Shown one piece after another: positions 6,501-33,580 of a DNA stretch of 33,580 nucleotides. The notes beneath the pieces were generated by a model that was given only the letters and a program-made list of their open reading frames with translations, had not been told where the DNA came from and made no database searches. This stretch comes from an uncultured Clostridia bacterium (lineage in GTDB: Bacteria; Bacillota; Clostridia; Oscillospirales; Acutalibacteraceae): assembly GCA_947629295.1 (NCBI GenBank), contig CANRDH010000001.1, positions 1 through 33,580 of the forward strand, in the 5' to 3' direction. Made by a program: the position numbers and the translations under genes. How positions within the stretch are numbered: the stretch's first letter is position 1; the number at the start of each line of letters is the position of its first letter.

Positions 6501-6682
6501 GATTATATACCGAGATGCCGATATATGTTTTATACAGCTATGAAAAGCTGAAGATAACCGAGAAACCGGATGTTATGAGAGTGGTTATTGCTTTGTGCTG
6601 CTCATTTACGCTTACACTTACGGCTGCGGGAATACTGACGGCGGTATATTTCAGAAAAAAGAAAAAGTTAAAAATAAAGTAA
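3512..6682 (+). CDS. pulA: Type I pullulanase (GH13) with signal peptide, MucBP-like and starch-binding-like C-terminal modules, and a C-terminal TM anchor
   Basis: TTG start after GGAGGGA, followed by a signal peptide. Pullulanase motif NWGYDPKNYNVPEGSY. GH13 regions I-IV are present: MDVVYNHT, DGFRFDLMG, MYGEPWAA, YMSAHDN. Three MucBP-like repeats (VNIEYKD...TVTYNY, TVNYMKEG...TVTYYYE, VNVIYLDGQG...VLYSYE). Terminal hydrophobic helix VVIALCCSFTLTLTAAGILTAVYF followed by RKKKK. Confidence 0.9.
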   Translation: MPKFKRICSFMLAITTLLGGSAMSVGAATTKEKEKKEEVVYAHELDKQAYNGDDLGAVYKKTETTFKVWAPTAERVAVKLYATGSSEEEGAEEISTTVMKKGKNGVWSLTLKGDKKNLYYTYLVTNGGTTSETADVYSKAVGVNGNRSMIVDLDSTDPEGWDKDSHVLYDDPTDAIVWEVHVRDFSKSEISGVSLKYQGKYLAFTEKGTTVDNKGDVSTCIDYLKKLGVTHVQLMPVYDYATVDETKVNGEEGNWGYDPKNYNVPEGSYSTNPYDGNVRIKEFKQMIKALHDANIGVIMDVVYNHTYTAKGSCFENTVPGYYYRLNEDGSFSDASGCGNETASEHLMYRKYMIDSVLYWTNEYHIDGFRFDLMGIHDVETMNLIRQALDKNVKNGKKIIMYGEPWAAAAPATNEKTAVKENAKLLSDRIGVFNDSFRDAVKGHVFNAQEPGFVQDGSNSDTLKKCIPANTVDSAAFLKQPSQSVTYMSAHDNYTLYDKLVISTKNDESFDERDENIVDMNKLAAAVMMTSQGTVFMQAGEEFARTKLGDDNSYISSDKINQLDWNNLIKYADLDSYYQGLIEIRKNFKPFRDATVESAKKISFSDTDSGVIAYTLENSITKDSEWGYVAVLFNSGDEKAEVTLKQSGKTALPKKWEIVADGSQAGLEGIGVIEGNKITVEPKSALILADKESFDKLALKSDKCIVNIEYKDSESGEVIKKQVLKGAEGDGYTSVRSDFLDVEYDYIGIDGEETGNFTKNPKTVTYNYKKFDGKIVTLTVNYMKEGSEFLQTGETEAAGSYTESVREGSPYNAPIKVIDGMKLKIDKFPQNSFGMAYQDDITVTYYYESIGAEDLVIHYYDDSDRDGVCVYIYAETEDGEKAYTDKAPGSRMTPDSELGDGWYSITVKDIGNVSGLKAKFSDTKGKNPDSTEYDTAHEVWIENGVVTHRGEVNVIYLDGQGNVLDSAVLSGREGIEYQTKKAQFENMKFVSATSNTEGLYTEMPIYVLYSYEKLKITEKPDVMRVVIALCCSFTLTLTAAGILTAVYFRKKKKLKIK

Positions 6683-7806: not shown

Positions 7807-10185
7807 TTATAGTATAGTCAGATTTGTATAATTAGCCATAAGCTTTTTTGTTCCCACGCTGTCAAATGCAATTTCAAGAAGAGTATCGGACGCCATGCTT
7901 TTTGCATTAACAATAAGTCCGTCACCGAAGGTTTTATGTCTTACTCTCATTCCCACAGAATAGCTCAGAGAGTTTTTTTGCTTTGCCGGCGCGGAGGATA
8001 TGATTCTGCTTTGCTGCATATCATTTTGCCGCTTCATACCTGATTGTATACGTCCGAAGCCGGGGTTTTCGGGACGCTTATGCACTTTTTCCTCAACAAG
8101 ACCGCCGGGAAGCTCATAAAGAAACCGTGACGGTTTGTTTCTTGAGGTTTTTCCGAAAAGTGTGCGTGAGCCGGAATTTAAGAGATAAAGCTTGTTTTTT
8201 GCTCTTGTTATGCCTACATAGGCAAGTCGTCTTTCCTCCTGCATATCCTCCTCCGACATAAGAGAAAGATAGCCGGGGAAGATATTTTCCTCCATTCCCG
8301 GGATGAATACTGTATCAAATTCAAGGCCCTTTGCGGAATGAAGAGTCATGAGTATGACATAGCTTTCCTCATCGTCGGAATTGTAGCTGTCTATATCACT
8401 CAAAAGTGCAATTTCCTCCAAAAAGCCCTGCAAGGTGGCGTTGTCGGGATTTTCCTGCTCATAGCGGATAATGCTTGATTTAAGCTCTCTGATATTTTCG
8501 ACAGCCTCATCTCCGTGATTGCTTTCATTCAATATAAAGGGTATATAGTCGATTTTTTCTATAAGCTTACTGTACATTTCGGAAACAGAATTGCCGACCT
8601 CAAGCTCATGGGACATTTCCTCTATAATCAGGCAGAATTCTTCAAGCTTCATCCGGGATTTTTGTAAAACCTCAAATTCGTCACTTCTTTTCATCGTTTC
8701 AAACATACTCTGACCGAGCATATCTCCGATTTCCTCAATTCGGGAAACTGTCTTGTCACCTATTGCTCTTTTGGGTATATTTATTATACGCTTCAGCCTT
8801 ACATTGTCATTGTGGTTGCATATTACGCTGAGATATGCTATCATATCACGTATCTCACGTCTTTCGTAAAATCGGCGTCCGCCTATTATTCTGTAGGGTA
8901 TCGCCGAGCGCACCAAAGCACGTTCTATATTCTGCGACTGTGAATTCATCCTGTAAAGTATTGCATAATCCCTGTAGGATTTTCCGTTTGCAATTCCGTC
9001 AAGAACGGTGTTTGCAATAAACGTACTTTCATCGCGTTCGTCAAAGGCATTGTAATGGATAATTTTATCCCCCGCCTCATTATCCGTCCAAAGGGTTTTA
9101 TCCTTTCGGGCAATGTTATTTTTTATTATGAAATTAGCCGCCGATAATATGTTTCTTGTTGAGCGGTAATTCTGTTCAAGCTTTATTGTATAAGCATTTT
9201 CAAAGGTTTTTTCAAAATCAAGAATGTTACTTATACTTGCTCCTCTGAATTTATAAATGCTCTGGTCGTCGTCTCCCACAACGCAAAGATTGTTATGCAC
9301 GCTTGAAAGCAGCCGCACAAGCTCATACTGCATATGGTTTGTGTCCTGATATTCGTCCACCATTATATACTTAAACTGATTGCCGTATTTTTCCAGTACC
9401 TCGGGAAAATTCCGGAGAAGCACTACAGTATTAAATATCATATCGTCAAAATCCATAGCGTCCGACTTTAAGAGTCTGTCTTGATAAGCTTTATATACCT
9501 TTGCTATGGACATAAGTCTGTTGTCTGTACCGGCATATTCCGCAAAATCATCGGGCGTCATCAGATTATCCTTTGCATTGGATATTTCCCGGAGTGCGTC
9601 CTTCGGGGAAATCATTTTTTCGTCTATTCCGAGTACCCGCAGACAGTCCTTTATAAGGCGCTTCTGGTCGTCTGCGTCGTATACCGTAAAATGTGCGCTG
9701 TATCCCAGGAAATAACCGCATCTGCGCAGTATCCTTCCGCAGGCAGAATGAAAGGTTGACGCCCATATGTCAAGACCGCATTCTCCGACCTTAGCGCAGA
9801 TACGCTCTTTAAGCTCTGCTGCTGCCTTATTGGTGAAGGTTATTGCAAGTATTCTCCACGGTGAAGGAGCGGAAACAGAAAGCTTTTGTGCGAGATCGTC
9901 ACGCAGATGTGTTTTTGATTCGGCCGTTTTTCGTATTTCCTCAATTTCTTCATCTGTATAATCCCCGTATATTTCATCGGTTTCATATGCCCGACCCCAA
10001 CGGAGAATATTTGCTATTCTGTTTACGAGGACAGTGGTCTTTCCGCTGCCCGCACCCGCAAGTATAAGCAGGGGGGAGCTTACTCTGTATACCGCCTCCT
10101 GCTGTTTATCGTTAAGGTGTGAAAATTCATTTTCTATAATTTCTCTCCTCAGAGCCGCAAGCTCTGAATAGGCTGCTTCATTCAT
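7807..10185 (-). CDS. pcrA: ATP-dependent DNA helicase PcrA (UvrD family, SF1)
   Basis: Walker A AGAGSGKTTVLVNRIA, motif II MVDEYQDTN, TLHSAKGLEFDTVF, YVGITRAK. The C-terminal tail GMRVRHKTFGDGLIV is typical of PcrA. Confidence 0.93.
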   Translation of the reverse strand: MNEAAYSELAALRREIIENEFSHLNDKQQEAVYRVSSPLLILAGAGSGKTTVLVNRIANILRWGRAYETDEIYGDYTDEEIEEIRKTAESKTHLRDDLAQKLSVSAPSPWRILAITFTNKAAAELKERICAKVGECGLDIWASTFHSACGRILRRCGYFLGYSAHFTVYDADDQKRLIKDCLRVLGIDEKMISPKDALREISNAKDNLMTPDDFAEYAGTDNRLMSIAKVYKAYQDRLLKSDAMDFDDMIFNTVVLLRNFPEVLEKYGNQFKYIMVDEYQDTNHMQYELVRLLSSVHNNLCVVGDDDQSIYKFRGASISNILDFEKTFENAYTIKLEQNYRSTRNILSAANFIIKNNIARKDKTLWTDNEAGDKIIHYNAFDERDESTFIANTVLDGIANGKSYRDYAILYRMNSQSQNIERALVRSAIPYRIIGGRRFYERREIRDMIAYLSVICNHNDNVRLKRIINIPKRAIGDKTVSRIEEIGDMLGQSMFETMKRSDEFEVLQKSRMKLEEFCLIIEEMSHELEVGNSVSEMYSKLIEKIDYIPFILNESNHGDEAVENIRELKSSIIRYEQENPDNATLQGFLEEIALLSDIDSYNSDDEESYVILMTLHSAKGLEFDTVFIPGMEENIFPGYLSLMSEEDMQEERRLAYVGITRAKNKLYLLNSGSRTLFGKTSRNKPSRFLYELPGGLVEEKVHKRPENPGFGRIQSGMKRQNDMQQSRIISSAPAKQKNSLSYSVGMRVRHKTFGDGLIVNAKSMASDTLLEIAFDSVGTKKLMANYTNLTIL

Positions 10186-10235
10186 ATATTTACATTCTCC
10201 TGTTTTGACGTATATATTTTTTTTCGTACCATACT

Positions 10236-10264
10236 ATTTTACAACAAAATGATAATAATATCAA
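10236..10264 (-). promoter_or_regulatory. Sigma-A-like promoter for pcrA
   Basis: On the minus strand: TTGATA, 17-nt spacer, TAAAAT, about 50 nt upstream of the pcrA ATG. Confidence 0.45.
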
Positions 10265-10445
10265 ATGAATTTGAAATTTTTGCCTGCGTTTTGCTTTGAC
10301 AATAATTAAAAAAATATGCAATTTATTGCTCCATTGTACATATTTTTATTAATGGGAGATTTGACCCCAAAAGGTATAATTTTCGGGACAGAGAGCTATT
10401 AATGAAAGGAGTTTCCTTTCAGACAAACAAGAAGGAGGAGTTTTT

Positions 10446-11453
10446 ATGAAAAGTATAAAAGGCATAGATGTTTCATATGCTCAGGGTGATATTGATTTCG
10501 ACAGGATAAATAAATCACAGGTTCAATTTGTCATTGTACGCAGCAGCTTCGGATGGGAAAAGAATCAGAAGGATAATAAATTTGAGCGTAATATAAAGGG
10601 TTTTCAATCAAAAGGGATCCCTTGCGGTGCATATCATTATTCTTATGCAAAAAGTAAGGAGGATGCCGTTAAGGAGGCTAAATACTGCCTTGAATGTATA
10701 AAGGGCAAAAAGCTCGAGCTTCCCGTATTTATTGATTTGGAAGACCCTTCCGTAGCAGCGCAGGGAAAAAGGGTATGCACGGATATAGCAAAGACATTTT
10801 GCGATTATATGAAAAAGGCAGGCTATAAAACGGGGATCTATATCAATCCTAATTGGCTTAACAACTATGTCTACAAGGATGAGCTTATTGGAAAATACAC
10901 CATATGGCTTGCTCAGTGGGAAAGCAAAAAGCCCGCTTTTGATTGCTCTCTGTGGCAGTATAATGTGGGAGGAAACGGAAGCATCTCGGGAATCAGCGGA
11001 CGCTGCGACCTTGATATTATGTACGTAGACGAAGCCGCAAAGCCGGAAACGGGATCCGTGCCCGAAGCTGATAAGAAACCCGCTGATGACAGCAAAAAGG
11101 CAGTCTTCAGAAAGGGTGACGAGGTCAAGGTGCTGAACCCGATAAATTATGACAACGGGGAGAAATTTATTGTATATCCGAATGAAAAATATACTGTTAT
11201 TGAAGCAGTCGGAGACAGGATCGTGATAGGTATAAACGGTCAGGTTACTGCGGCTGTAAATAAAAAATATCTCAGCAAGCCGGGTTCGGGCAATAAAAGC
11301 AATAGCTATACCTATGTTATTCAGCCGGGAGATAATCTGTCCTATATCGCTGAAAAATACGGCACAACAGTGGAAAAAATCGTAAAGGAAAATAATATCC
11401 CGAATCCCGACCTTATTTACGCCGGAGATAAACTTAAGATAACTGTCGAATAA
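10446..11453 (+). CDS. GH25 muramidase (lysozyme) with SH3-like and LysM cell-wall-binding domains, no signal peptide
   Basis: The GH25 N-terminus GIDVSYAQGDIDFDRI...FVIVRSS starts at residue 5. A Pro/Lys/Asp-rich linker follows, then an SH3-like segment FRKGDEVKVLNP...YTVIEAVGDRIVIG. C-terminal LysM YVIQPGDNLSYIAEKYGTTVEKIVKENNIPNPDLIYAGDKLKI. Strong RBS GAAGGAGGAG. Confidence 0.88.
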   Translation: MKSIKGIDVSYAQGDIDFDRINKSQVQFVIVRSSFGWEKNQKDNKFERNIKGFQSKGIPCGAYHYSYAKSKEDAVKEAKYCLECIKGKKLELPVFIDLEDPSVAAQGKRVCTDIAKTFCDYMKKAGYKTGIYINPNWLNNYVYKDELIGKYTIWLAQWESKKPAFDCSLWQYNVGGNGSISGISGRCDLDIMYVDEAAKPETGSVPEADKKPADDSKKAVFRKGDEVKVLNPINYDNGEKFIVYPNEKYTVIEAVGDRIVIGINGQVTAAVNKKYLSKPGSGNKSNSYTYVIQPGDNLSYIAEKYGTTVEKIVKENNIPNPDLIYAGDKLKITVE

Positions 11454-11500
11454 AAAACAGACCGGGCTGTTTAAAGCAGCGGTATTCTGTAAATCAAGCA

Positions 11501-11549
11501 CGGCACACAGCGGTTTGCTATCGTAAATTTCTGTGTGCCGCCTTTTTTG
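11501..11549 (+). terminator. Rho-independent terminator after the lysin gene
   Basis: 10-bp stem CGGCACACAG / CTGTGTGCCG (11501-11540) followed by CCTTTTTTGT. Confidence 0.75.
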
Positions 11550-11604
11550 TTTCGACAATTTTTTCTCTCCGAAAGAAATATGAGTTTAAAATTATATAAA
11601 ATTC

Positions 11605-11634
11605 TTGACAAAAACATACCAATCGTTATACAAT
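11605..11634 (+). promoter_or_regulatory. Sigma-A-like promoter at the head of the long rny leader
   Basis: TTGACA (11605-11610) with TATACA or TACAAT at 16-18 nt spacing. It lies about 410 nt upstream of the rny start. Confidence 0.4.
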
Positions 11635-12044
11635 ATATAAAGACGGAAAACGTCTTATGGGTTTTTGCCCGATGACTGAATTTTCAACTCAATTATGCCG
11701 TTTTTATATATTATATTTTTTAATATTATAGCAACAGGATAATTTTATTATTTAATACGGTGCGATTGTGCGCAGTTATGCCGCATAGGTCGTGTAATTT
11801 TATAATACTTCTTTATCGGCAATCTGCCGCTGTGCGGCAGGTGTGAATACAATAAAATATAATATTATGTCGTCGCTGCCGTCGTTCTCTGCGAATTTCG
11901 GGGAGCAGAAAGAGTTCCCGTGTGTGTTTGCCGCAGAAGAATGAGGTATGTGTTTGTAAAGCGGCACCTTTGAGCTGATTGACAGACTTATTAAACTGAG
12001 TAAAAAATCAGAATGAAAGAATCAACTTAGGAGGTGTCAGATTA

Positions 12045-13661: not shown

Positions 13662-13738
13662 ATCTTCAGATAGCCGTATGAACTATTTTTTTGCTTTGGC
13701 ATATTATGTGGTATAACCATCATAAGGAGGAATACATT

Positions 13739-14560
13739 ATGTCGGATAATATTATCGGCTGCGATAATGATTTCAGCTTTGACAAGGTAAAAGAGGCTGT
13801 TTGTATAAATGCGCCGAGGATCTATGACTCATGCCTTGATAAGGATTGTCTGGAGGACCTTCCCGTTTTTCTTACCAAGCCCGGTCAGTGTCTTATAGAT
13901 AAGGCAACAAGTGTTCGCCTTAACAGTGTAAATGTATGCAATGTTGCGGTGAATCTTCAGCCTGTTCCCTTCCATAACGGCTTCTATGCTGTGGATATGA
14001 CTTTTTATTTTGATGTATGTCTTGACGCGTTCATGGCCCCCAATGCTCTGCCTATGCCCGTCAAGGGACTTGCGGTATTTTCAAAGAGAGCCGTGCTTTT
14101 CGGAAGCGAGGGCAGCGTAAAAATATTCACGTCGGATTGCCCCGATTCTCCCGAGGGAGTAGGTACGGCAAGTCAGAATTGTCCTAAGGCAGTGGTTCAG
14201 GTTGCCGAACCGATCGCTCTTTCTGCAAGACTCAGCGAAAAACACGGTCATTGCCAGATGCCTCCTTGCCGTATACCTGAATGTATTATGCACCGCTATG
14301 GAGGAGAATTTGTGCAGAGTGAAAGTGATAAGGAGGTTCTTGTTTCTATCGGTATGTTTACGGTTGTTCAGCTTGAGAGGGATGTTCAAATGCTTATTCC
14401 CGCATATGACTTCTGCATACCGAAGAAGGAATGTATATCCAATTCCGAGGACCCGTGCGAGCTTTTCAGCAGCATAGATTTTCCGACGGGTGAATTTTTC
14501 CCCAAAAACTGCCCGTCAGACTCAAAAAAGAAATTCGGCTGCGGCTGCGGCGGAGATTAA
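13739..14560 (+). CDS. Hypothetical cysteine-rich protein (18 Cys in 273 aa), no signal peptide or TM; possibly spore-associated
   Basis: AAGGAGG at 13724-13730 then ATG 13739; the track ORF opens upstream at 13691. Long ORF with consistent coding character and a C-terminal FGCGCGGD. I recognise no family. Confidence 0.6.
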   Translation: MSDNIIGCDNDFSFDKVKEAVCINAPRIYDSCLDKDCLEDLPVFLTKPGQCLIDKATSVRLNSVNVCNVAVNLQPVPFHNGFYAVDMTFYFDVCLDAFMAPNALPMPVKGLAVFSKRAVLFGSEGSVKIFTSDCPDSPEGVGTASQNCPKAVVQVAEPIALSARLSEKHGHCQMPPCRIPECIMHRYGGEFVQSESDKEVLVSIGMFTVVQLERDVQMLIPAYDFCIPKKECISNSEDPCELFSSIDFPTGEFFPKNCPSDSKKKFGCGCGGD

Positions 14561-19955: not shown

Positions 19956-20564
19956 ATGCCAGGATCCGAAAAATACTTTGGTATATTACATGAAGGAAAG
20001 CCGGATCTTTTTACGGCGGCTTTTGAAAAATCACGGCTCAGCGACGATGATATAACAAAATTGAATCTGAGCTGAATTATTCACTGCCGCGGGGATACAG
20101 AGAGTTTCCGCAAAGCATCGGGTTTCCCGCTCTTACGGTGTATGTTACATTTTGCGGCGGCAGATGTGCCGCTCGTTTTGTGATACATTTTCCGGGGGAA
20201 GAAAATTGCTATGTTCCTGTTGAAGATGATGAAGATAATGTATTGGCTGATTTTGATTTGTACAGCTATGACGGCGTTGTTTATAGTGATTGGCTGAAAC
20301 AGCTTTCTGTGAAAGTCGGGGATATGACGGCATGGCTTGAGGCAGGCTATATACCGTTCGGTGATTTCTAACGCGGTATCCGGAGAAATATACAGCATAC
20401 ATCATGAGGATATATATACTACGGAGGATTGGGAAAGCCCGGAGGCAGTGTGCGAATGTATGGAAAATGAGGCAAGCGTGCTTTGTCGGGATATTAACGA
20501 TTTTCTCAGGCTTATCTGCACCGGAGAGCCTTATGATGAGGATGATTTGACTTTTTGCGGATAA
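19956..20564 (+). pseudogene. SMI1/KNR4 (SUKH-1) family immunity-type gene disrupted by two compensating frameshifts
   Basis: Three consecutive ORF pieces in frames 0, 2 and 0. They join into ...SDDDITK|IESELNYSLPRGYREFPQSIGFP...LADFDLYSYDGVVYSDWL...AWLEAGYIPFGD|..NAVSGEIYSIHHEDIY...DINDFLRLIC. The breaks fall at the A-run 20057-20060 and the T-rich GATTTCTA at 20363-20370. GGGGG RBS precedes ATG 19956. Confidence 0.65.
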
Positions 20565-20594
20565 TAATATAAAGTGAAAGGCAGGTATAAACCT

Positions 20595-21029
20595 ATGGAA
20601 GAAAAACAAAGCTTTGAAGAATTCAAGAAACAGCTTCTTGAAGAAAATGAAAAAAATTACGGAGATGAGATTCGTGAGGAATACGGAGAGGACGTTTATG
20701 AAACAAGCTCGGATATCCTTGCAAGTCTTACGGAGGAAAAGTGGAGAAGATCCGAGGAACTCAGGATAAAAGCGGAGGATATGCTGCAAAGGCTTGCACC
20801 GCAGGGTGATGCAAAAAGCGACGAGGCGGCGGAGATGGCAAGACTGCACGGAGAATGGGCGAGGATTTTTTGGGAGAGTGAAAATTATTCTCCCGAGGCA
20901 CATCTTGCCGTGGCTGAGATGTACGTAAACGATGAGCGCTTTTCCGCATATTATAATTCGATCGTTGATGGCGGCGCGGAGTTTATATATGAAGCAATAA
21001 AAAATTATTGTGAAAAGTTTATGAAGTAA
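20595..21029 (+). CDS. Stand-alone TipAS antibiotic-recognition domain protein (no MerR HTH)
   Basis: YGDEIREEYGEDV...LTEEKW...AAEMARLHGEWARIFWESENYSPEAHLAVAEMYVNDERFSAYYN...GAEFIYEAIKNY matches the TipAS pattern. The alternative start GTG 20574 cannot be excluded. Confidence 0.65.
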   Translation: MEEKQSFEEFKKQLLEENEKNYGDEIREEYGEDVYETSSDILASLTEEKWRRSEELRIKAEDMLQRLAPQGDAKSDEAAEMARLHGEWARIFWESENYSPEAHLAVAEMYVNDERFSAYYNSIVDGGAEFIYEAIKNYCEKFMK

Positions 21030-21152
21030 CATCTTTATATCCGCTGAATAATATGTATTAGCAGCGAAAACAAGGGAGTTTGAAAATTAAGGGTAAGCCT
21101 TAAGAAACTGCAATGTGTTAGCTGTAAAAATTATAAATGCGGGTGTAGAAAT

Positions 21153-21458
21153 ATGAGTAATCCTTATGATGTATATCCGGAATATCCTTCGGATGAGTGC
21201 GAAGAATGCAAAAAGTTTTCCAAGCATTTTATAGATATAACAACACCTGTCGATATTATGCCGAAGGTTCGCGTGGGTAAGGTAGAGATTGAATGCTGCG
21301 GCGACCCGATAGTAATATGTGACAAAAATAAGAAAGACTGCAATGTCTGCCATTTGGTTTTTGTACAGAAGGTAAGCATAAAGGTTCCGATTAAGTATGA
21401 GTTCAAGGCTGACGTCGGAGAAAGCTGCACAGACTGCTGCGCAGACAAGGATAAATGA
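21153..21458 (+). CDS. Hypothetical small cysteine-rich protein (10 Cys in 101 aa)
   Basis: The ORF is followed immediately by a strong terminator. It has CC pairs (IECCGD, TDCCAD) and a CxxC-like pair (DCNVCH). The RBS is weak and I recognise no family. Confidence 0.5.
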   Translation: MSNPYDVYPEYPSDECEECKKFSKHFIDITTPVDIMPKVRVGKVEIECCGDPIVICDKNKKDCNVCHLVFVQKVSIKVPIKYEFKADVGESCTDCCADKDK

Positions 21459-21467
21459 TTTGCAGCG

Positions 21468-21494
21468 GGGATACGGGAAAACCGTATCCCTTTT
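21468..21494 (+). terminator. Rho-independent terminator after the small Cys-rich ORF
   Basis: 9-bp stem GGGATACGG / CCGTATCCC with loop GAAAA, followed by TTTTCCTGTTTT. Confidence 0.8.
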
Positions 21495-21568
21495 CCTGTT
21501 TTGTGATGGTATAAAAAAACGGGTATTATTTTTGTATAAAATATCGTATTAAATAAGCAATAAAAATA

Positions 21569-21597
21569 TTGATTTTTTAATATAATTTTAGTATAAT
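21569..21597 (+). promoter_or_regulatory. Near-consensus sigma-A promoter about 290 nt upstream of the LRR gene
   Basis: TTGATT (21569-21574), 17-nt spacer, TATAAT (21592-21597). Confidence 0.5.
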
Positions 21598-21759
21598 CTT
21601 TATAGGAGAATTTCATATCCCCATTTCTGCTGCGGAATGTCGGAGATGTTTTGTAAAATGCCTGCGGGCAGATTTCGGAACATCTTATTTTATTCCTAAT
21701 TTTTTGTATATTTATTTTGCAGAGATTAAATAAAATATATAAAAAAATCGTAACAACTC

Positions 21760-21887: not shown

Positions 21888-24329
21888 ATGCAATGTAAAC
21901 AATGCGGCAGCGAGTGGAAAACAAATGCGCGCAATGCCGGCATGACAAGCTGTCCGTTCTGCGGAGCTAAGCTTGAGCAGGAGGAAGAAAACAAGATTGT
22001 TTTCCAGAATGCCAAGGAGGCTTTAAGATACATAGTAAAAAGCTATGGTGTAGATGTAATACTCGATGGACAACAGCTTAAAACAGTTCTTGCGGAGCTG
22101 ATTCCCGATCTGAAGCAGGAGCGAAAGCTTTTTATGGATGCTTTTGAGGCGGGAGTGTGCAACGCACTCTACCTTGCACACGCACAGGCAGAGATCGATA
22201 AGTGCATAGCTATACTGCAATCAATAAAGGTGCTTACGCAGGAAGCGTGTATAGCTGAAAAATGGGCGTGCTATGTGGTGGAAACCTATGTTTATGCCCT
22301 TAATTGGAATGTTCCGATGTTTGGAATCACGCCTAATATCCATATGTATCAGATACCCGAAAGCATTGATGAGTCGGGTGAGGGAGGAAAGGACCCCAGA
22401 CTTCTTCAATCAGGAGATTATTATGTGGATCAGAGCGCTTCCGATGATGAAATGTGGAATAAGGCTTCCGAAAACGGCGGTAATGATTTCGTAGCTCCCG
22501 AGCAAAACGAGCAGCAGGAGATACCTGAACAGGATACGGGCGATAAGGCGGAGAAGGAAGAACAGCCTGCCGAAGAGGAGAAAATTGAATCTCCGGTATT
22601 CGATTTTACAGAGGAAACCGAACAGCCTGAACAGCAGGAAGCTCAGCAGCCTGAAATTAATGAAACTGCTGAGGAGGCTCAGGAGACGGAATCCGCAGCT
22701 GTGGATGAAGAGCCTGAACCGCAATCACCTGTATATGATTTTACCGAACAGACTCAGGAACCTGCCGAAGAGGAAAAAATTGAATCTCCGGTATACGATT
22801 TTTCAGAGGAAGCTGAACAGCCCGAACAGGATGAGGCTCAGCAAACAGAAGAAGAAATTAAGCCCCCTGTATACGATTTTACAGAGGAGGCTCAGCAGCC
22901 CGAACAGACTGCCGAGAAGGAGGAACCCGCCGAAGCTCCCAAGCAGCCTGAACAGCCTGCTCATAATACTTCAGATGCGGCAGTTCAACAGAATATGAAT
23001 CCGAATCAGCAGATGCCGTGGGGATATAATCCGTGGATGGCACAGGGTCAGCAGATGCCGGGACAGCAGATGCCGTGGGGATATAATCCGTGGATGGCAC
23101 AGGGTAAGCAAATGCCCGGACAGCCCGGGGAACAGCAGATGCCGTGGGGATATAATCCGTGGATGGCGCCGAATCAGCAGATGCCCGGACAGTCCGGAGA
23201 ACAGCAGATGCCATGGGGATATAATCCGTGGATGGCGCCGAATCAGCAGATGCCGGGACAGCAAATGCCGAATCAACAGGCACAGGGACAGCAAGCGCCT
23301 GTTCAGCCGCAGCAGATGCCTCAGCAGCCGGCGGCCCCCGAACAGCCTGTACCTCAGCCGCAGCCGGCCGAACAGACGGCAATACCATCCAATGAGCCTA
23401 TTCCTGACGCTGCTCCTGCGCAGATCCCGTCAAATGCTCCGATTCCGGACGGCAAACCGGAGATCCCCGCAGCAGAGGAGAGTGCAAAAACGGAAATTCC
23501 TGCCGGTATAAAGGTATTTACAAGCAATGACGCAACCAGATTCAGGGGTGCCGGTCATGCACAGATTCAGGAGGGATATCAGGTTATAGAGGATTGTGCT
23601 TTCTCGGGATATGACACGATTGAATCGATAGAATTGCCTTCAACGATTGTCAGCATTGGTGAAAGGGCTTTTGAGAATTGTAAAAAGCTTATAAACGTCA
23701 ATATTCCCGAAGGCGTTACTGAAATAGGCAGGGGAGCGTTCACAGGATGCTCAAATCTCCCGAAGATAGAGCTGCCGTCAACATTGAGCAGAATAAGACA
23801 GAGCACATTCAGTGGCTGTCAGGCACTTAAGGAGATAAAGCTCCCGTCAGGTTTAAAGGGCCTTGGTAAGCAGGTGTTTCTTAACTGTGAATCACTTTTG
23901 GAGGTAGTAATTCCGGACGGCGTTGAAGAGCTTTCAGAAAACCTGTTCAGCGGATGCCATAGTCTTGTTAAGGTGGTTGTACCGGAAAGTGTTCACGACA
24001 TAAGAAAGAATGTATTCAGTTGGTGTGAGGCACTTAAGACTGTGAATATTCCCGAGGCTGTTAAGGTTATCGGCGCAGGCGCATTTACGGGATGCTCGTC
24101 GCTTAAGACTGTCAATATTCCTAAGAATCTTGAGGTTATTGAATACGGTGCATTCAGCAACTGCAGCTCACTTAAGAGTCTTGTACTTCCGGATTCGATT
24201 ACAACGATTGAAAATAATGCGTTCAACGGCTCCAACAGAACTCTCAGGGTTACCTGTTCAAAGAATAATTCCTATATTAAGCGTTATTGCAGAATGAATC
24301 GTGTAAAGCTTGAAAGCACTGAACAGTAA
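21888..24329 (+). CDS. Zn-ribbon / helical domain / acidic and Q-P-W-rich tandem repeats / BspA-type leucine-rich-repeat protein; no signal peptide or TM detected
   Basis: N-terminal CxxC...CxxC (MQCKQCG...SCPFCG). A ~130-aa helical region follows. Then four SPV[YF]DF[TS]E motifs in an acidic tract and four QQMPWGYNPWMA repeats. The C-terminal ~270 aa hold BspA-like LRR units (IELPSTIVSIGERAFENCKKL, VNIPEGVTEIGRGAFTGCSNL, and others). Confidence 0.85.
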   Translation: MQCKQCGSEWKTNARNAGMTSCPFCGAKLEQEEENKIVFQNAKEALRYIVKSYGVDVILDGQQLKTVLAELIPDLKQERKLFMDAFEAGVCNALYLAHAQAEIDKCIAILQSIKVLTQEACIAEKWACYVVETYVYALNWNVPMFGITPNIHMYQIPESIDESGEGGKDPRLLQSGDYYVDQSASDDEMWNKASENGGNDFVAPEQNEQQEIPEQDTGDKAEKEEQPAEEEKIESPVFDFTEETEQPEQQEAQQPEINETAEEAQETESAAVDEEPEPQSPVYDFTEQTQEPAEEEKIESPVYDFSEEAEQPEQDEAQQTEEEIKPPVYDFTEEAQQPEQTAEKEEPAEAPKQPEQPAHNTSDAAVQQNMNPNQQMPWGYNPWMAQGQQMPGQQMPWGYNPWMAQGKQMPGQPGEQQMPWGYNPWMAPNQQMPGQSGEQQMPWGYNPWMAPNQQMPGQQMPNQQAQGQQAPVQPQQMPQQPAAPEQPVPQPQPAEQTAIPSNEPIPDAAPAQIPSNAPIPDGKPEIPAAEESAKTEIPAGIKVFTSNDATRFRGAGHAQIQEGYQVIEDCAFSGYDTIESIELPSTIVSIGERAFENCKKLINVNIPEGVTEIGRGAFTGCSNLPKIELPSTLSRIRQSTFSGCQALKEIKLPSGLKGLGKQVFLNCESLLEVVIPDGVEELSENLFSGCHSLVKVVVPESVHDIRKNVFSWCEALKTVNIPEAVKVIGAGAFTGCSSLKTVNIPKNLEVIEYGAFSNCSSLKSLVLPDSITTIENNAFNGSNRTLRVTCSKNNSYIKRYCRMNRVKLESTEQ
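22566..22920 (+). repeat. In-frame imperfect duplication (~195-nt period) encoding acidic SPV[YF]DF[TS]E-containing units
   Basis: CCTGCCGAAGAGGAgAAAATTGAATCTCCGGTATtCGATTTT at 22566 recurs at 22761 with two mismatches. Related CCTGTATA[TC]GATTTTAC cores occur at about 22728 and 22866. Confidence 0.8.
23007..23275 (+). repeat. In-frame tandem repeat (57/69/69-nt spacing) encoding four QQMPWGYNPWMA(Q/P)(G/N)(Q/K)QMPGQ units
   Basis: The 35-nt core CAGCAGATGCCGTGGGGATATAATCCGTGGATGGC starts at 23007, 23064 and 23133. A fourth copy at 23202 has one substitution. Confidence 0.9.
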
Positions 24330-28386: not shown

Positions 28387-28420
28387 TAACATACTTAAAA
28401 ATTGACAAATTTTTCTCAGA

Positions 28421-28459
28421 ACCGACATGACGGATCAGGCCCGTTGTGTCGGTTTTTTT
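28421..28459 (+). terminator. Rho-independent terminator after the ABC operon
   Basis: Stem ACCGACA / TGTCGGT (28421-28453) followed by a run of T. Confidence 0.65.
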
Positions 28460-28528
28460 GCGTTATTTGAGGAATTATGCAGAATAATAAATAAAATATC
28501 AGTAAATTATCTGTTTTTATCCGCATTA

Positions 28529-28557
28529 TTGACAAATATTACTGCAAGTAGTAAAAT
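28529..28557 (+). promoter_or_regulatory. Consensus-like sigma-A promoter for the Ter-type operon
   Basis: TTGACA (28529-28534), 17-nt spacer, TAAAAT (28552-28557), about 65 nt upstream of the first ORF. Confidence 0.5.
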
Positions 28558-28620
28558 GTAACTGTTAAGGTATATTTTGGATAACGGTGCATTTTCTTAA
28601 TGTAAACGGAAAAATTATTT

Positions 28621-30933
28621 ATGATAGGTATTGAAGGTGAAAAATCTGTGTTTACTCATATCAAAGCGGGCGGACTTAATGATTTTTTCACTGAACTGCA
28701 AAATCGTCCCCAAAATGGAATATATTTTTACAGAATTAACGGATACAATGAGCAAATCGAAAATTTCATAAGGAAATATTATGACAGCGCCTTGAAAAAC
28801 GGAATTGTCATTGAGGGACATATACCCAACCCCGATAATAATATGCTTGGATATTATAATGAAATGATGGGTGCGGATTTCAGCATTGACAGGGAATTTA
28901 TATCCCGGGCTTTGAAAAAATGGCTTCCGAGAATGAATTTCAATCAAAACGGAGAGGTATCTTCGGCAATATATGATACCCTGTGCAGTCTGAAAGAAAA
29001 CGGTAAAAACGAAAGTATGCTGAAAAATGCATATATAAAGTTTATGTGTTGGTTTTATTATAAATTTGAAAGAATTGTAAGCAGGCTTGGGGGGAATAAT
29101 ATTCCTAAGCTTCTCTATGAGGGAAATGTAAGTAATTATGAGCTTCTTATGTTAAGAATACTTGCCTGCTCCGGATGTGATGTACTTATCCTGCAATATG
29201 GCGGAGATAAGGAATATCTGAGGTCAGACCCGCAATCCGAATTTTCTTATTCCCTTGTATTGCCGGATATGCGTGATTTTCCAAAGGATTTCAGTCTGGG
29301 CAAAATCAGGGAAGAAAATGAGAAAAAAATCAGCAGACAGATGATTTTGGGGGATATGCCCGGGATAAGTGCATGCACCAATGCATGGATAAAGGGGAAG
29401 GGCTTTGAGGACCTTCTGACGCCGACGGCTCAAAGGGGAAATGATCCTTCTCTTTTTTATAATTGCTATATAAGAATAAACGGCACAGAGGATAAGATAA
29501 GCTATCTTAATGAATTGTACAGATATCAGCTTGAAGTAAAAAACAGAGAAAGAAAAATAGTTATAGTTGAGGGGGAGCTTCCGCTGCCGAGCTATGACGA
29601 GATAGCTAAAATCCGTAAGGGAAATTATAAGAGCGTTGAACGGCTTATTGCCGATATGGCTTCAAATATAAGATATCAGAATAAAGCAGAGCTGCGAAAG
29701 CTTATTGTTTATGCCTTTGCGGATATTATATCCGAGTATTCCGAGAAAGCCGGTATGAATTTGAACCGACTGACAAGCAAAGCAGTTTATATTCTTTGTT
29801 GGCTCAGAAGATATGGCGAGGTGCTGTTCAAAGGATGGAGGATGCCGGATACTGCAAGTTTCGTTTATCTTGGGGGCTGTCGGAATGAAAATGAAGTAAT
29901 GTTTATAAAGCTTCTCTCAAGACTTCCGGTTGATGTTCTTATACTTGTGCCTGACAAAAGTAAAAAATGTATACTTGAGGATAAGCTTCTGTATGAGATA
30001 AATTACAAGGAAAGCTTAGTTGTAAAAAAATATCCGCAGGACCCTTCAGAGCTCAGGCTCGGGACGGCGGCTTATCATGCCGAAAGAGAGCTTGACAGCA
30101 TATTGTATGAGGATTCGGGTATCTACCGTGACCGGCAGTACGGGCGGGCGGACTCGGTAATTATGAAAACGATGTATGAGGAAATATATATTCTATGGAA
30201 GCAGGAGATGAAATACAGACCTAATTTCAAGGTTATTGACGATACCGTGACGGTGCCTGTTATATTTTCCAAGATATGCGGAGTGAAGGACAAGAATCTG
30301 GGAGCCTATTGGGCGGATATAAAACAGCTTTTTACACAGGATACGCTGATATATAACCGCTTCCCGATAATCAAGGCGGGAGCACATAATCCCTTGAAAT
30401 CCGTTGCCGCAGAATTTCTGAAAAACGGAAGACTGCAAAGAAATGTCATAAAGAAGCATAAACTTTATAAATACGGTTTTCTCCGTGAGGAAGTTCAGGA
30501 GCATATTCTTGATAAAATTCAGCTTATGATAAACAAAAGAATTATAAGGGGTACGTTTGAAAGCGGCACAGAATATATGATAGCAGCAACCGTGTTGAAT
30601 CTGGATAAAAGTGTAATAAGGCTTATACAGAAATTTGATTTTACTAAATCAAATCCGAAAGTAATATGCCTTTCCCTTGACGAGGAGGGTATGACGCTTG
30701 AAGATACTGTATTTCTTACCTTCCTGAGTCTTGTCGGTTTTGATATTGCCGTATTTGTACCGACGGGCTATCAGACAATAGAGCGATACTATAACGATGG
30801 GAAAGCTATGTTTGATGAGCATCAGGTCGGAGAGTATATGTATGATTTAAAGGCTCCCGATTTCAGTATGATCAGGGATAAGGATGACGTTAAAATACCG
30901 TGGTATGAAAAAATATTTAAGAGAGGAAGATGA
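28621..30933 (+). CDS. YceG-like protein (TelA/TerD-associated family, Pfam YceG_bac type), 770 aa
   Basis: Genomic context matches Bacillus yceG-yceH. Segments resemble the family as I recall it: YFYRINGY, NPDNNMLGYYNEMMG, KKWLPR, GKNESMLKNAYIKFMCWFYYKFERI, PKLLYEGNVSNYELLMLRILACSGCDVLILQY. An alternative start at GTG 28648 follows GAAGGTG. Confidence 0.7.
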   Translation: MIGIEGEKSVFTHIKAGGLNDFFTELQNRPQNGIYFYRINGYNEQIENFIRKYYDSALKNGIVIEGHIPNPDNNMLGYYNEMMGADFSIDREFISRALKKWLPRMNFNQNGEVSSAIYDTLCSLKENGKNESMLKNAYIKFMCWFYYKFERIVSRLGGNNIPKLLYEGNVSNYELLMLRILACSGCDVLILQYGGDKEYLRSDPQSEFSYSLVLPDMRDFPKDFSLGKIREENEKKISRQMILGDMPGISACTNAWIKGKGFEDLLTPTAQRGNDPSLFYNCYIRINGTEDKISYLNELYRYQLEVKNRERKIVIVEGELPLPSYDEIAKIRKGNYKSVERLIADMASNIRYQNKAELRKLIVYAFADIISEYSEKAGMNLNRLTSKAVYILCWLRRYGEVLFKGWRMPDTASFVYLGGCRNENEVMFIKLLSRLPVDVLILVPDKSKKCILEDKLLYEINYKESLVVKKYPQDPSELRLGTAAYHAERELDSILYEDSGIYRDRQYGRADSVIMKTMYEEIYILWKQEMKYRPNFKVIDDTVTVPVIFSKICGVKDKNLGAYWADIKQLFTQDTLIYNRFPIIKAGAHNPLKSVAAEFLKNGRLQRNVIKKHKLYKYGFLREEVQEHILDKIQLMINKRIIRGTFESGTEYMIAATVLNLDKSVIRLIQKFDFTKSNPKVICLSLDEEGMTLEDTVFLTFLSLVGFDIAVFVPTGYQTIERYYNDGKAMFDEHQVGEYMYDLKAPDFSMIRDKDDVKIPWYEKIFKRGR

Positions 30934-30936
30934 TTT

Positions 30937-32109
30937 ATGGGATTGGATTTTTCTAAGGTGAATACTCAGGCGAAGGAACAGGAAAGAAGCGAAAACAACG
31001 AGCTTGCAAAAACAGGAACTCCCGAGGAGCCCATTGTTGAAACCTTTGATATGGCCGCCGAAAGACAAAAGCTTAACAGCGAGCTTACGGCCTCAAGGGA
31101 GGTTGATGAGCTTGTGAGTAAGATAGAAGTCAGCGATATGCAGACGATAGTAACTTTCGGCGGAGAGGTTGCCGAGGAGATTTCAAAGGCTTCCGATATC
31201 GTGCTGAACAGCATGAATCTCGCACAGCTTGAAAAATCAAGCGCAATGCTTAATCAGCTTACAAAGATAATGTCGCAGTTTGATATAGAGGAGGTAAGCG
31301 AGGAAAAGGGCTTTTTCGGAAAGCTGTTCAATAATGCAAAAAAGCAGCTTGATAAAATACTTGCAAAATATCATACCATGGGTGACGATGTCGATAAGAT
31401 ATATGTTGAACTGCGCAAGTATGAGGATGAAATAAAACATTCTAACAGGAACCTGGAGCAGATGTTTGAGGCAAATGTAAATTATTACCATGAGCTTGTA
31501 AAGTATATTCTTGCCGGAGAACAGGGATGCAGGGAAATTCAGGCATATATAGAGAAGCGCCGGAAGGATCTGGAGGAAACAGGGGATAATTCCATACAGT
31601 TTGAGCTTCAGGCATGTCAGCAGGCGCTTATGATGCTTGAACAGAGAACTCAGGATCTCAGAACTGCCGAAAATGTCGCTATGCAGTCTGTCCCCATGAT
31701 AAAAACTATAGAATACAGCAACCTTAACCTTGTAAGAAAAATAAATTCGGCATTTATCGTTACACTGCCGATTTTCAAGCAGGCTTTGGCACAGGCTATA
31801 ATGCTGAAAAGACAGCGTGTTCAGGCTGAGGCTATGCAGGCGCTTGACGAAAAAACAAATGAGATGCTTGTCAAAAACGCGAAAAACAGCGTCGAGCAGT
31901 CTAAGCTTACGGCACAGCTTGCTTCGGGAAGCTCCATTAAGACGGAAACACTTGAAACGACCTGGAGAACCATTATGGACGGTATTGCCGAAACAAAGAG
32001 AATACAGGAAGAGGCACAAAGACAGCGTATTGATGATCAGGCAAAGCTTCAGGCTATCAAGGACGAATTTGAAAAAACTTACAGTGTGCCGACATCTGAA
32101 TCGGTTTAG
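30937..32109 (+). CDS. telA: TelA/YceH/KlaA family toxic-anion-resistance protein
   Basis: All-helical 390-aa protein with the family-typical N-terminal segment (IVTFGGEVAEEISKASDIVL) and long coiled regions. The start lies 3 nt after the yceG-like stop. Confidence 0.85.
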   Translation: MGLDFSKVNTQAKEQERSENNELAKTGTPEEPIVETFDMAAERQKLNSELTASREVDELVSKIEVSDMQTIVTFGGEVAEEISKASDIVLNSMNLAQLEKSSAMLNQLTKIMSQFDIEEVSEEKGFFGKLFNNAKKQLDKILAKYHTMGDDVDKIYVELRKYEDEIKHSNRNLEQMFEANVNYYHELVKYILAGEQGCREIQAYIEKRRKDLEETGDNSIQFELQACQQALMMLEQRTQDLRTAENVAMQSVPMIKTIEYSNLNLVRKINSAFIVTLPIFKQALAQAIMLKRQRVQAEAMQALDEKTNEMLVKNAKNSVEQSKLTAQLASGSSIKTETLETTWRTIMDGIAETKRIQEEAQRQRIDDQAKLQAIKDEFEKTYSVPTSESV

Positions 32110-32203
32110 TGGGAATATATTTATGCTTCGACTATGGCAATGTTATATCGGTGCCGCAGGACGGGCGCCGGAAGAATAAAAAAACTATCAGGAGGAAACA
32201 GCT

Positions 32204-32785
32204 ATGGCAATCAGTTTATCAAAAGGACAAAAGGTAGACCTTACAAAGGGCAATCCCTCTCTTAAAAATATTATGGTGGGACTCGGATGGGATGTGAATC
32301 AGTATGATACGGGCTACGCATTCGATTTGGATGCTTCCGCATTCCTTTTGGGTGCAAACGGAAGGTGCATAACCGAAAAGGATTTCGTTTTTTACGGTAA
32401 CCTTGAGCATCCGTCGGGTGCTGTAAAGCATATGGGCGATAACCTTACAGGTGAAGGCGAAGGCGATGACGAACAAATTGAAGTTGACCTTTCGCTCATA
32501 CCCGATAATATAAACAGAATTGCCTTCACCGTCACAATATATGATTCCGACAAACGCAGGCAGAATTTCGGACAGGTAAGCAATTCTTTTATAAGAATTG
32601 TTGATCTTACTACCGGCAATGAGATTCTAAGATATGACCTTGCCGAAGATTTTTCAATCGAAACCGCTATTGTAGTCGGTGAAATATACAGAAATAACGG
32701 CCAGTGGAAATTCAATGCCATAGGAAGCGGCTTCCAGGGTGGACTTGCCGCACTTTGCGGAAATTTCGGAATAGAAGTTGCATGA
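32204..32785 (+). CDS. terD: TerD-family stress protein (YceD/YceE-like)
   Basis: [102 protein letters not shown]. Strong AGGAGG RBS. Confidence 0.93.
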
Positions 32786-32859
32786 TGTTTATAAATCAAA
32801 GAGGGATGGATTTCCGATTTTGAATTGGCGGTAGCCTGCCGCGCGGAAGGAGTAAAGGT

Positions 32860-33465
32860 ATGGCAATTAATCTTACAAAGGGGCAAAAGGTGAATTTGCG
32901 TAAAAGCGGCGATTCGGGTCTTGGTGAAATTCTGATAAACCTTAACTGGAATGCACGCATACGAAAGAAAGGCTTTTTTGCAAGTCTGTTCAGCAATGAT
33001 TCAAATATAGACCTTGACCTCGGATGTCTTTATGAGCTGAAAAGCGGAAAGAAGGGCACTGTTCAGGCGCTTGGCAAAGCCTTCGGCTCATTGAGCAGGG
33101 AGCCGTATGTCTCCCTTGACGGCGATGACAGAACAGGTGAAAATCTTTCGGGCGAAAATCTTAGAATCGACGGAAACAGGATATCGCAGATAAAGAGAGT
33201 GCTTGTATATACATTTATCTATGAAGGCGTTGCAAATTGGCAGGAAGCCGACGCTGTTGTTACGATAAAATATCCCGGAGCGGAGGATATAATAGTAAGG
33301 CTGGATGAGTATAATTCAAGCAAGAGAATGTGTGCACTTGCACTGTTTGAAAATGTTTCCGACAGTACATTCAGTGTTCAGAAGCTTATACAGTTTTTCA
33401 GCGGTCATAGTGCTATGGACGGAGCATTTAATTGGGGCCTGAAATGGGTACCGGGAAGAAAATAA
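32860..33465 (+). CDS. Divergent TerD-domain protein (YceC/TerA-like paralogue)
   Basis: MAINLTKGQKVNL, IDLDLGCLYEL and VSLDGDDRTGENLSGENLRIDG are collinear with the TerD fold, but the acidic metal-binding motif is degenerate. AAGGAG RBS. Confidence 0.8.
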   Translation: MAINLTKGQKVNLRKSGDSGLGEILINLNWNARIRKKGFFASLFSNDSNIDLDLGCLYELKSGKKGTVQALGKAFGSLSREPYVSLDGDDRTGENLSGENLRIDGNRISQIKRVLVYTFIYEGVANWQEADAVVTIKYPGAEDIIVRLDEYNSSKRMCALALFENVSDSTFSVQKLIQFFSGHSAMDGAFNWGLKWVPGRK

Positions 33466-33482
33466 GAGGGGAGAATAAACGA

Positions 33483-33580
33483 ATGAATCTTGAAAAAAAA
33501 GAGCAGGCAAAGCAGATAAAGAAATATGACGGCTTAAGCGATAAGCAGGTTGAGGAATCAAGAGCAGAACACGGCTCCAA
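33483..33580 (+). CDS. P-type cation-transporting ATPase (Ca2+-ATPase-like N-terminus), 5' fragment running off the window
   Basis: My own translation gives MNLEKKEQAKQIKKYDGLSDKQVEESRAEHGS. The G-L-S-x-x-x-V-x-x-x-R-x-x-x-G pattern is the Cation_ATPase_N opening of P2-type pumps. A GGGGAG RBS lies 17 nt after the upstream stop. Only 32 codons are visible. Confidence 0.55.
   Translation, partial: MNLEKKEQAKQIKKYDGLSDKQVEESRAEHGS

Follow-up and report, generated by a model that had tools for sequence, protein, structure and literature searches.

The question raised by the locus described here is which membrane protein serves a Ter-type gene cluster from which TerC is absent. Genes for Ter proteins, TelA and YceG occur widely, in pathogens and gut commensals as well as on plasmids and in jumbo phages; they influence how well cells resist tellurite, oxidants, antibiotics, colicins and phages, and to our knowledge there is no agreed biochemical mechanism for them. 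The stretch analysed (33,580 nucleotides (nt) of contig CANRDH010000001.1, assembly GCA_947629295.1, from an uncultured Clostridia bacterium of the Acutalibacteraceae; hereafter 'the window' in its whole length) ends in five same-strand genes, encoding a triple-domain YceG_bac protein, TelA, a canonical TerD, a TerD with a degenerate acidic motif and the start of a P-type ATPase (Table 1). An initial annotation, made from the window alone, had proposed that this ATPase takes the position of TerC and forms with TerD, TelA and YceG a variant module for divalent-cation transport. The comparative analysis below supports that proposal: the operon is probably a reduced Ter stress module, the sole integral membrane part of which is predicted to be a single-site P2 (PMCA/LMCA1-like) cation-exporting ATPase. 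As an operon it is of the Ter/yce kind and is conserved in gut Clostridia, with a P2 ATPase in place of TerC.

From the letters of the window the ATPase call was weak, the 32-aa stub by itself falling below the threshold of the Cation_ATPase_N model (E 0.009, 16 bits vs 20.4). An exact-protein look-up of the second TerD retrieved six metagenomic contigs of the same organism, with 99.7-99.9% DNA identity to the window end, and one of these (L002; 99.8% identity over 1158 nt) extended the open reading frame (ORF) to 630 amino acids (aa), with Cation_ATPase_N, E1-E2_ATPase and Hydrolase domains and a DKTGT motif. Extension of the contig, as suggested in the initial annotation, thus recovered 630 aa in the window species itself, and the full length was taken from the orthologue in the closest relative with a complete gene (L007:5228-7990; 920 aa, 96% identical over the 630 aa known for the window species), in which Cation_ATPase_N, E1-E2_ATPase, Hydrolase and Cation_ATPase_C make up the full type II set.

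Three classes of ATPase were distinguished among the related loci described below, namely a (the window type, n=47), b (n=11) and c (n=2). The PMCA-type Ca2+ model TIGR01517 was the best NCBIfam match in all three, with a PMR1-type model second-best, and the nearest solved structures to the L007 ATPase were those of Arabidopsis ACA8 and Listeria LMCA1. All 47 full-length class-a orthologues retained DKTGT, TGDGVND, the PEGL Glu, the Asn and Asp of transmembrane helix (TM) 6 and the TM5 Asn; the ion-site motifs AVPEGLPL, VNLVMD(S/G)LGA and FQLVINVAAV, with Ala at the position of SERCA E771, were likewise present in 47/47, and classes b and c kept DKTGT, TGDGVND and equivalent ion-site residues. 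This residue pattern is that of a predicted one-site Ca2+ pump, and the earlier call of a P2-type, Ca2+-pump-like enzyme was upheld, with putative catalytic and single-site residues intact. The domain set, DKTGT, TGDGVND, the PEGL Glu, the TM6 Asn/Asp and the Ala at the E771 position are all shared with the single-site P2 Ca2+ pumps (LMCA1, ACA8, PMCA, and S. pneumoniae MgtA, which is Mn2+/Ca2+). The window ATPase, for which transport is predicted, differs from those pumps in having no calmodulin-binding autoinhibitory extension (the stretch before Cation_ATPase_N is only some 15 residues long, and the chain stops just past TM10), no riboswitch, and a place inside a Ter operon, of which it is the only product with transmembrane helices.

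Neither TerC nor TerB was found by a Pfam scan of the window. The window together with 83 related loci (1.5 Mb) was also searched with three TerC-superfamily queries (Lactococcus DUF475 and the TerC proteins of B. thuringiensis and E. coli) and with E. coli TerB. For the TerC-superfamily queries the lowest E value by tblastn was 0.38 and phmmer returned no match; for TerB the lowest was 4.7, in agreement with the initial annotation that the module holds neither. Nor was a TerC gene found just 3' of the ATPase, where L007 shows a minus-strand ORF without Pfam match, a nitroreductase and SpoIIE. The proposal that the ATPase stands in the position of TerC was directly supported by the gene order of plasmid pFI430 of Lactococcus cremoris MG1363 (L093), which carries genes for C-C lyase, PRTase, StiP, a hypothetical protein, YceG, TelA, three TerDs and a DUF475 protein, in that order. 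This plasmid resembles the clostridial loci in its order of YceG, TelA, TerD and membrane transporter and in lacking TerB, but the slot is there filled by the 356-aa DUF475 protein, also matched above threshold by Pfam TerC (55.7 bits), and there is no ATPase; the proteins of the two systems are 27-55% identical.

Other known systems were compared as well. The Bacillus yceCDEFGH operon (yceCDE-meeF-yceGH in B. subtilis and B. anthracis) shares the TerD paralogues, YceG_bac and TelA, co-oriented and without TerB, but interposes TerC (MeeF) between its TerD genes and yceG, whereas the window has no TerC and a P2 ATPase after the TerDs; its YceG, of 543 aa and two units, is about 25% identical to the three-unit YceG of the window. 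The classic Bacillus order (three TerDs, TerC, YceG, TelA) is also seen on a B. thuringiensis plasmid (L090; NZ_CP151872.1). The Bacillus yce operon responds to stress, and mutation of yceGH leaves cells sensitive to reactive oxygen species (PMC10550928; PMC6813211, the latter for B. anthracis). The IncHI2-type terZABCDEF determinant (L091) is like the window in its TerD paralogues, which share the Ca-site motif, and like the clostridial relatives in having genes for PRTase and ATP-grasp proteins nearby; unlike the window, it has TerB, TerC and a VWA protein and is without YceG, TelA and a P-type ATPase. On the B. thuringiensis plasmid, a close LMCA1 homologue (9003-11669, minus strand; 717 bits to 6zhf) lies convergent to the cluster, 36 nt past the telA stop, so that a Ca2+ pump can adjoin a Ter cluster even where TerC is present, although this may be chance. 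No description of an operon combining Ter genes with a P-type ATPase was found by full-text searches of the literature outside the Ter survey of Anantharaman, Iyer and Aravind (2012); in a later summary from the authors of that survey the membrane part is TerC, and an ATPase is not mentioned.

Whether the adjacency of ATPase and Ter genes reflects more than chance was assessed by scanning one genome per species. At least 498 genomes held a YceG relative, and in the best 80 loci (hosts mostly Lachnospiraceae, also Ruminococcus albus 8, Fusibacter, Anaeromicropila and Bulleidia) the position of the ATPase was scored by tblastn and ORF clustering. It lay directly after the last TerD, on the same strand, in 62/80 loci, directly upstream of the cluster, again on the same strand, in two (L051, L077) and elsewhere inside the cluster in one (L016); it was not found in the available sequence of three (L013, L062, L071), and in the remaining 12 the contig ended before the position could be scored. 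Among the neighbours at L062, L071, L077 and L051, no TerC was found as a substitute transporter, the genes there encoding an opposite-strand Na:alanine symporter, an amidohydrolase, histidine kinases, a GGDEF protein, a TetR regulator and an AMP-binding enzyme. Within class a, identity was 0.64 for YceG, 0.79 for TelA and 0.82 for the ATPase; between classes a and b the corresponding values were 0.64, 0.76 and 0.36. Since the identity of the ATPase collapses between the classes while YceG and TelA hold, the pump was exchanged in place, one clade having swapped it for a distant paralogue (about 35% identity). This swap is the strongest argument that the slot requires a pump of this kind and, together with the counts above, it indicates that the adjacency noted in the initial annotation is not due to chance.

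Shared ancestry alone would yield many adjacent cases among mostly related Lachnospiraceae, and the ATPase, which is without unusual domains, could accordingly be an ordinary housekeeping Ca2+ efflux pump, co-inherited by synteny and with no functional tie to TerD, TelA and YceG. In the relatives, however, the ATPase lies between the TerD genes and a gene for a Ter-associated HAD protein, often 0-40 nt away or overlapping; with the HAD gene directly 3' of it, the ATPase is inside the cluster and not at its edge. It also stays with the cluster where the flanks have been rearranged (R. albus 8, L016) or where it has itself moved upstream (L051, L077), it was replaced by its paralogue in one clade while the divergence of YceG and TelA remained normal, and it was kept by the reduced lineage of the window, which lost the biosynthetic genes, the rhomboid and the HAD. 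A housekeeping pump carried along by synteny is therefore regarded as unlikely.

Several points nevertheless weigh against a Ter module built around the pump, and some of them favour the housekeeping alternative. Kinship among the sampled genomes inflates the raw adjacency count, and the three loci that keep YceG, TelA and TerD without an ATPase are also without TerC, which argues that the soluble proteins can persist without an adjoining transporter. Weak promoter-like sites (9/12) within the second TerD gene make independent transcription of the ATPase possible. The ion specificity is not secure, because the L007 ATPase passes TIGR01517 narrowly (517.7 bits vs a cutoff of 507.05) and class b falls below that cutoff (473); more distant class-a members score 532-552 and class c 640-663. 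Of the ATPase itself, the window holds 32 codons and its species 630 aa, the complete form coming from L007. Finally, neither Foldseek (for YceG) nor sequence searches of solved structures (for YceG and TelA) yielded a fold or activity assignment.

On the reading as a Ter module with a P2 pump, a stress that raises cytoplasmic Ca2+ (possibly Mn2+) would load the canonical TerD at its acidic sites. A membrane-proximal scaffold or assembly would be formed by the triple-domain YceG and TelA, both soluble; together with it the TerD paralogues might detect or buffer the cation and act on the pump or jointly with it, and the ATPase would extrude the cation at the cost of ATP. The same step would be carried out in other Ter/yce clusters by a TerC-superfamily secondary transporter, displaced here by a primary pump. 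From the gene context we infer the physical or regulatory coupling of TerD, TelA and YceG to the pump, as well as the identity of the ion and the nature of the trigger stress.

The ion could also be Mn2+ rather than Ca2+, with the pump as an analogue of TerC in the sense of MeeF and MeeY, bringing Mn2+ to the outer membrane face so as to metalate secreted or membrane enzymes or to avert Mn intoxication, and with the Ter proteins as cytoplasmic metal handlers. The TerC proteins MeeF (YceF) and MeeY export Mn2+ and metalate exoenzymes, meeF lying in the yceCDE-meeF operon and B. subtilis meeY being under a Mn-responsive riboswitch (PMC10550928), and in S. pneumoniae a PII-type ATPase with a link to Ca2+ efflux gives protection against Mn2+ toxicity and is controlled by a riboswitch of the yybP-ykoY family (PMC6649816). 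A PMR1-type model is moreover the second-best NCBIfam match, and both ions are carried by single-site P2 pumps of the PMR1/SPCA type; the TerC-superfamily protein in the same slot in Lactococcus fits such a role as well. However, the best family and structure matches (PMCA-type, ACA8, LMCA1) are Ca2+ pumps, the TerD motif kept here is one known to bind Ca2+, and no Mn riboswitch or other Rfam element was found at gathering thresholds in the window and in five related loci with long gaps between TerD and ATPase. Export of Mn2+ in the manner of MeeF and MeeY is on balance considered rather unlikely, if somewhat less so than the housekeeping pump.

The pump is kept, replaced in kind and retained in a stripped operon at a slot elsewhere filled by a TerC-superfamily protein, which constitutes independent genomic evidence for cation export as the partner activity of the soluble Ter proteins and points to divalent-cation export as a putative core membrane job of Ter systems. 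Tentatively, and with considerable doubt, this may be generalised: TerD, TelA and YceG would assist or regulate an exporter of cations in the membrane, which may be a carrier of the TerC superfamily or a P2 ATPase, and the common function of Ter systems would be the stress-triggered extrusion or delivery of Ca2+/Mn2+ across the membrane. If so, Ca-binding TerD paralogues would act on the pump much as calmodulin does on PMCA, and the clostridial core of five genes would be the smallest naturally occurring version in which this can be reconstituted. With one pump and four soluble proteins the operon is a small and tractable set for that purpose, and the ATP hydrolysis of the pump, which is easily assayed, could give a readout for regulation by TerD, TelA or YceG.

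The soluble proteins were assigned to their families with varying detail. A check with hidden Markov models upheld the YceG_bac and TelA assignments of the initial annotation, and both TerD proteins passed the Pfam model as well (Table 1). At least 3038 homologues of YceG were found, mostly in Lachnospiraceae and also under Clostridium names. The protein has three periodic hydrophobic core segments and zero transmembrane helices, the hydrophobic stretches being the buried cores of its three repeats. An AlphaFold2 model of YceG from a 13-sequence alignment reached a pLDDT of 70.6 and had no Foldseek match in the PDB at E<=0.001, and comparison of the YceG sequence with solved structures gave nothing useful. 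The Foldseek matches of YceG to repeated P-loop-type alpha/beta proteins were non-significant (TM-score about 0.1-0.15), and nothing was concluded from them. For TelA, a sequence search found no relative of solved structure.

The canonical TerD aligns over its full length to Klebsiella TerD (2KXT; E 5.5e-69) with the Ca-site motif retained. The divergent paralogue matched the Pfam model over residues 1-133 only (E 3e-9, 36.9 bits vs a cutoff of 25.3) and had no sequence match in the PDB; its type is present in 20 related loci. The acidic motif reads GDNLTG.G.GDDE in the canonical paralogues and GDDRTG....GEN in the second type of the window. TerD has been described as binding Ca2+ and, through a TerD-domain gene in Streptomyces, as affecting Ca homeostasis (Pan 2011 and Daigle 2015, as cited in PMC8123226).

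In most relatives the five genes are part of a larger arrangement, PRTase_2/TRSP > StiP-PELOTA > (ATPgrasp_Ter) > <C-C_Bond_Lyase YceG-trypsin fusion > rhomboid > core, the core itself running YceG > TelA > TerD (2-4 copies) > ATPase > HAD, often followed by <AIM24 <TerD. The PRTase, StiP, ATP-grasp, C-C lyase and HAD genes are the Ter-associated set for a nucleoside-like metabolite known from comparative genomics. No member of this set was found in the window or in its nearest relatives (L007-L010, metagenome-assembled genomes from rabbit gut), which have ABC permeases directly upstream and two TerDs, with the pump retained. This five-gene form, found in several species, has lost the biosynthetic genes, the rhomboid and the HAD, and what the window holds is the cut-down core of a Ter cluster that is larger elsewhere and conserved.

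The full biosynthetic set beside the same core in relatives would also fit a conflict or defence system, in which a nucleoside-like signal made by the PRTase, StiP, ATP-grasp, C-C lyase and HAD proteins is sensed by the TerDs and the pump is an effector that shifts the ion balance under attack by phages or toxins; the window copy, with no signal-making genes nearby, would be a remnant or reliant on genes elsewhere. Ter systems have been described as phage and xenobiotic resistance systems with signal, sensor, membrane and sub-membrane parts (PMC7824862), and the genomes of gut jumbo (Jug) phages combine several TerD genes, which are highly transcribed, with a gene for a Ca2+-translocating P-type ATPase that is not adjacent to them (PMC12880540), an independent co-occurrence of the two kinds of gene. 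Against such a role, none of the five proteins gave a PADLOC hit at E<=0.001, on which ground assignment to the known defence systems was rejected, and no YceG relative was found in viral contigs. The surroundings of the operon in the window are of a housekeeping nature and form no defence island, the GC content of the operon (0.39-0.44) is uniform with that of the window (0.425), and the conservation of the reduced form in several species runs contrary to decay. A defence function of this kind is considered unlikely, slightly more so than either of the alternatives above.

Further features of the larger cluster were noted beside the core. A fusion of a YceG domain with a trypsin-like protease, and a rhomboid protease, lie directly 5' of yceG in most relatives (L037 7831-9291; L087 7920-9359; L030 9384-9980) and not in the window, which suggests that regulated proteolysis is part of the full system. 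An AIM24-family protein and a longer TerD paralogue without the acidic metal-site motif are encoded convergently on the minus strand, 2-3 kb 3' of the ATPase, in about 20 relatives (L018, L020, L022, L027, L028; L088 19649-21295), and this pair is absent from the window lineage. A minus-strand ORF of 260-296 aa without a Pfam match follows the ATPase (or HAD) gene in the four closest lineages (L007 8080-8913, L010, L011, L012).

The five genes of the window are predicted to form a single operon, with co-transcription inferred from gene content, spacing and signals. The intergenic gaps, recomputed from the ORF calls, were 3, 94, 74 and 17 nt in order (the first being that between the yceG stop codon and the telA start), exactly as first annotated, and the consensus-like promoter following the terminator of the upstream operon was located at the place given for it. 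Both signals are conserved in relatives aligned at about 78% DNA identity: the terminator hairpin is kept with compensatory changes in L007-L010, and the -35/-10 block of the promoter is invariant across five relatives while its flanks diverge. The absence of a convincing internal terminator also stood, the sites returned by the pattern scan within the operon being weak, all inside ORFs and no more numerous than in shuffled sequence (5 vs 4.2). Three intergenic regions folded no better than their shuffles.

Table 1. Positions in the window of the five genes of the Ter-type operon and of the transcription signals before them
Feature	Position	Strand	Evidence or remarks
Intrinsic terminator of the upstream ABC sugar-transporter operon	28418..28456	+	16-bp stem and T run, pattern scan
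Sigma-70-type promoter, TTGACA-17 nt-TAAAAT	28529..28557	+	11/12 consensus positions, pattern scan
YceG_bac protein, 770 aa, three tandem YceG units, soluble	28621..30933	+	Pfam PF14266, E 5e-116, three stretches
TelA (toxic anion resistance family), 390 aa	30937..32109	+	Pfam PF05816, E 5e-100, model positions 1-329 of 332
Canonical TerD, 193 aa, intact Ca2+-binding signature	32204..32785	+	Pfam PF02342, E 1e-85
Divergent TerD paralogue, 201 aa, degenerate acidic motif (GDDRTGENLSGEN)	32860..33465	+	Pfam TerD
Putative P2-type (nearest PMCA/P2B) cation ATPase, first 32 codons, cut by window end	33483..33580	+	Ribosome-binding site AGAGGGGAG, 17-nt gap

Two minor elements were seen near these signals. 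An inverted repeat, GTTGAT-TTT-ATCAAC, immediately precedes the -35 box in L007, L008 and L010 and is a possible operator of some regulator; the copy in the window (about 28507-28527) is partly degraded. The gap between telA and terD contains an 8-bp GC-rich hairpin (CGGUGCCG...CGGCGCCG; 32148-32171), the fold of which is not significant relative to shuffles. Since it is followed by an A run and not a U run, it is not a terminator on the plus strand, and it could be a processing or stability element.

Elsewhere the window is occupied by an ABC sugar-transporter operon directly upstream (an SBP_bac_8 protein and two BPD_transp_1 permeases) and by chromosomal housekeeping genes (mnmA, AI-2E transporter, PcrA, GH25-LysM lysozyme, RNase Y, YmdB, FakA and RecG). 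Three ORFs, at 13691-14560 (+), 20145-21032 (-) and 21164-21616 (-), encode proteins of 289, 295 and 150 aa, respectively, without a Pfam match at E<=1e-4. A cell-surface pullulanase/alpha-amylase with CBM48, CBM26 and MucBP domains (3512-6682, +) and an 813-aa BspA-type leucine-rich-repeat protein (21888-24329, +) are consistent with a host among the gut-associated Clostridia.

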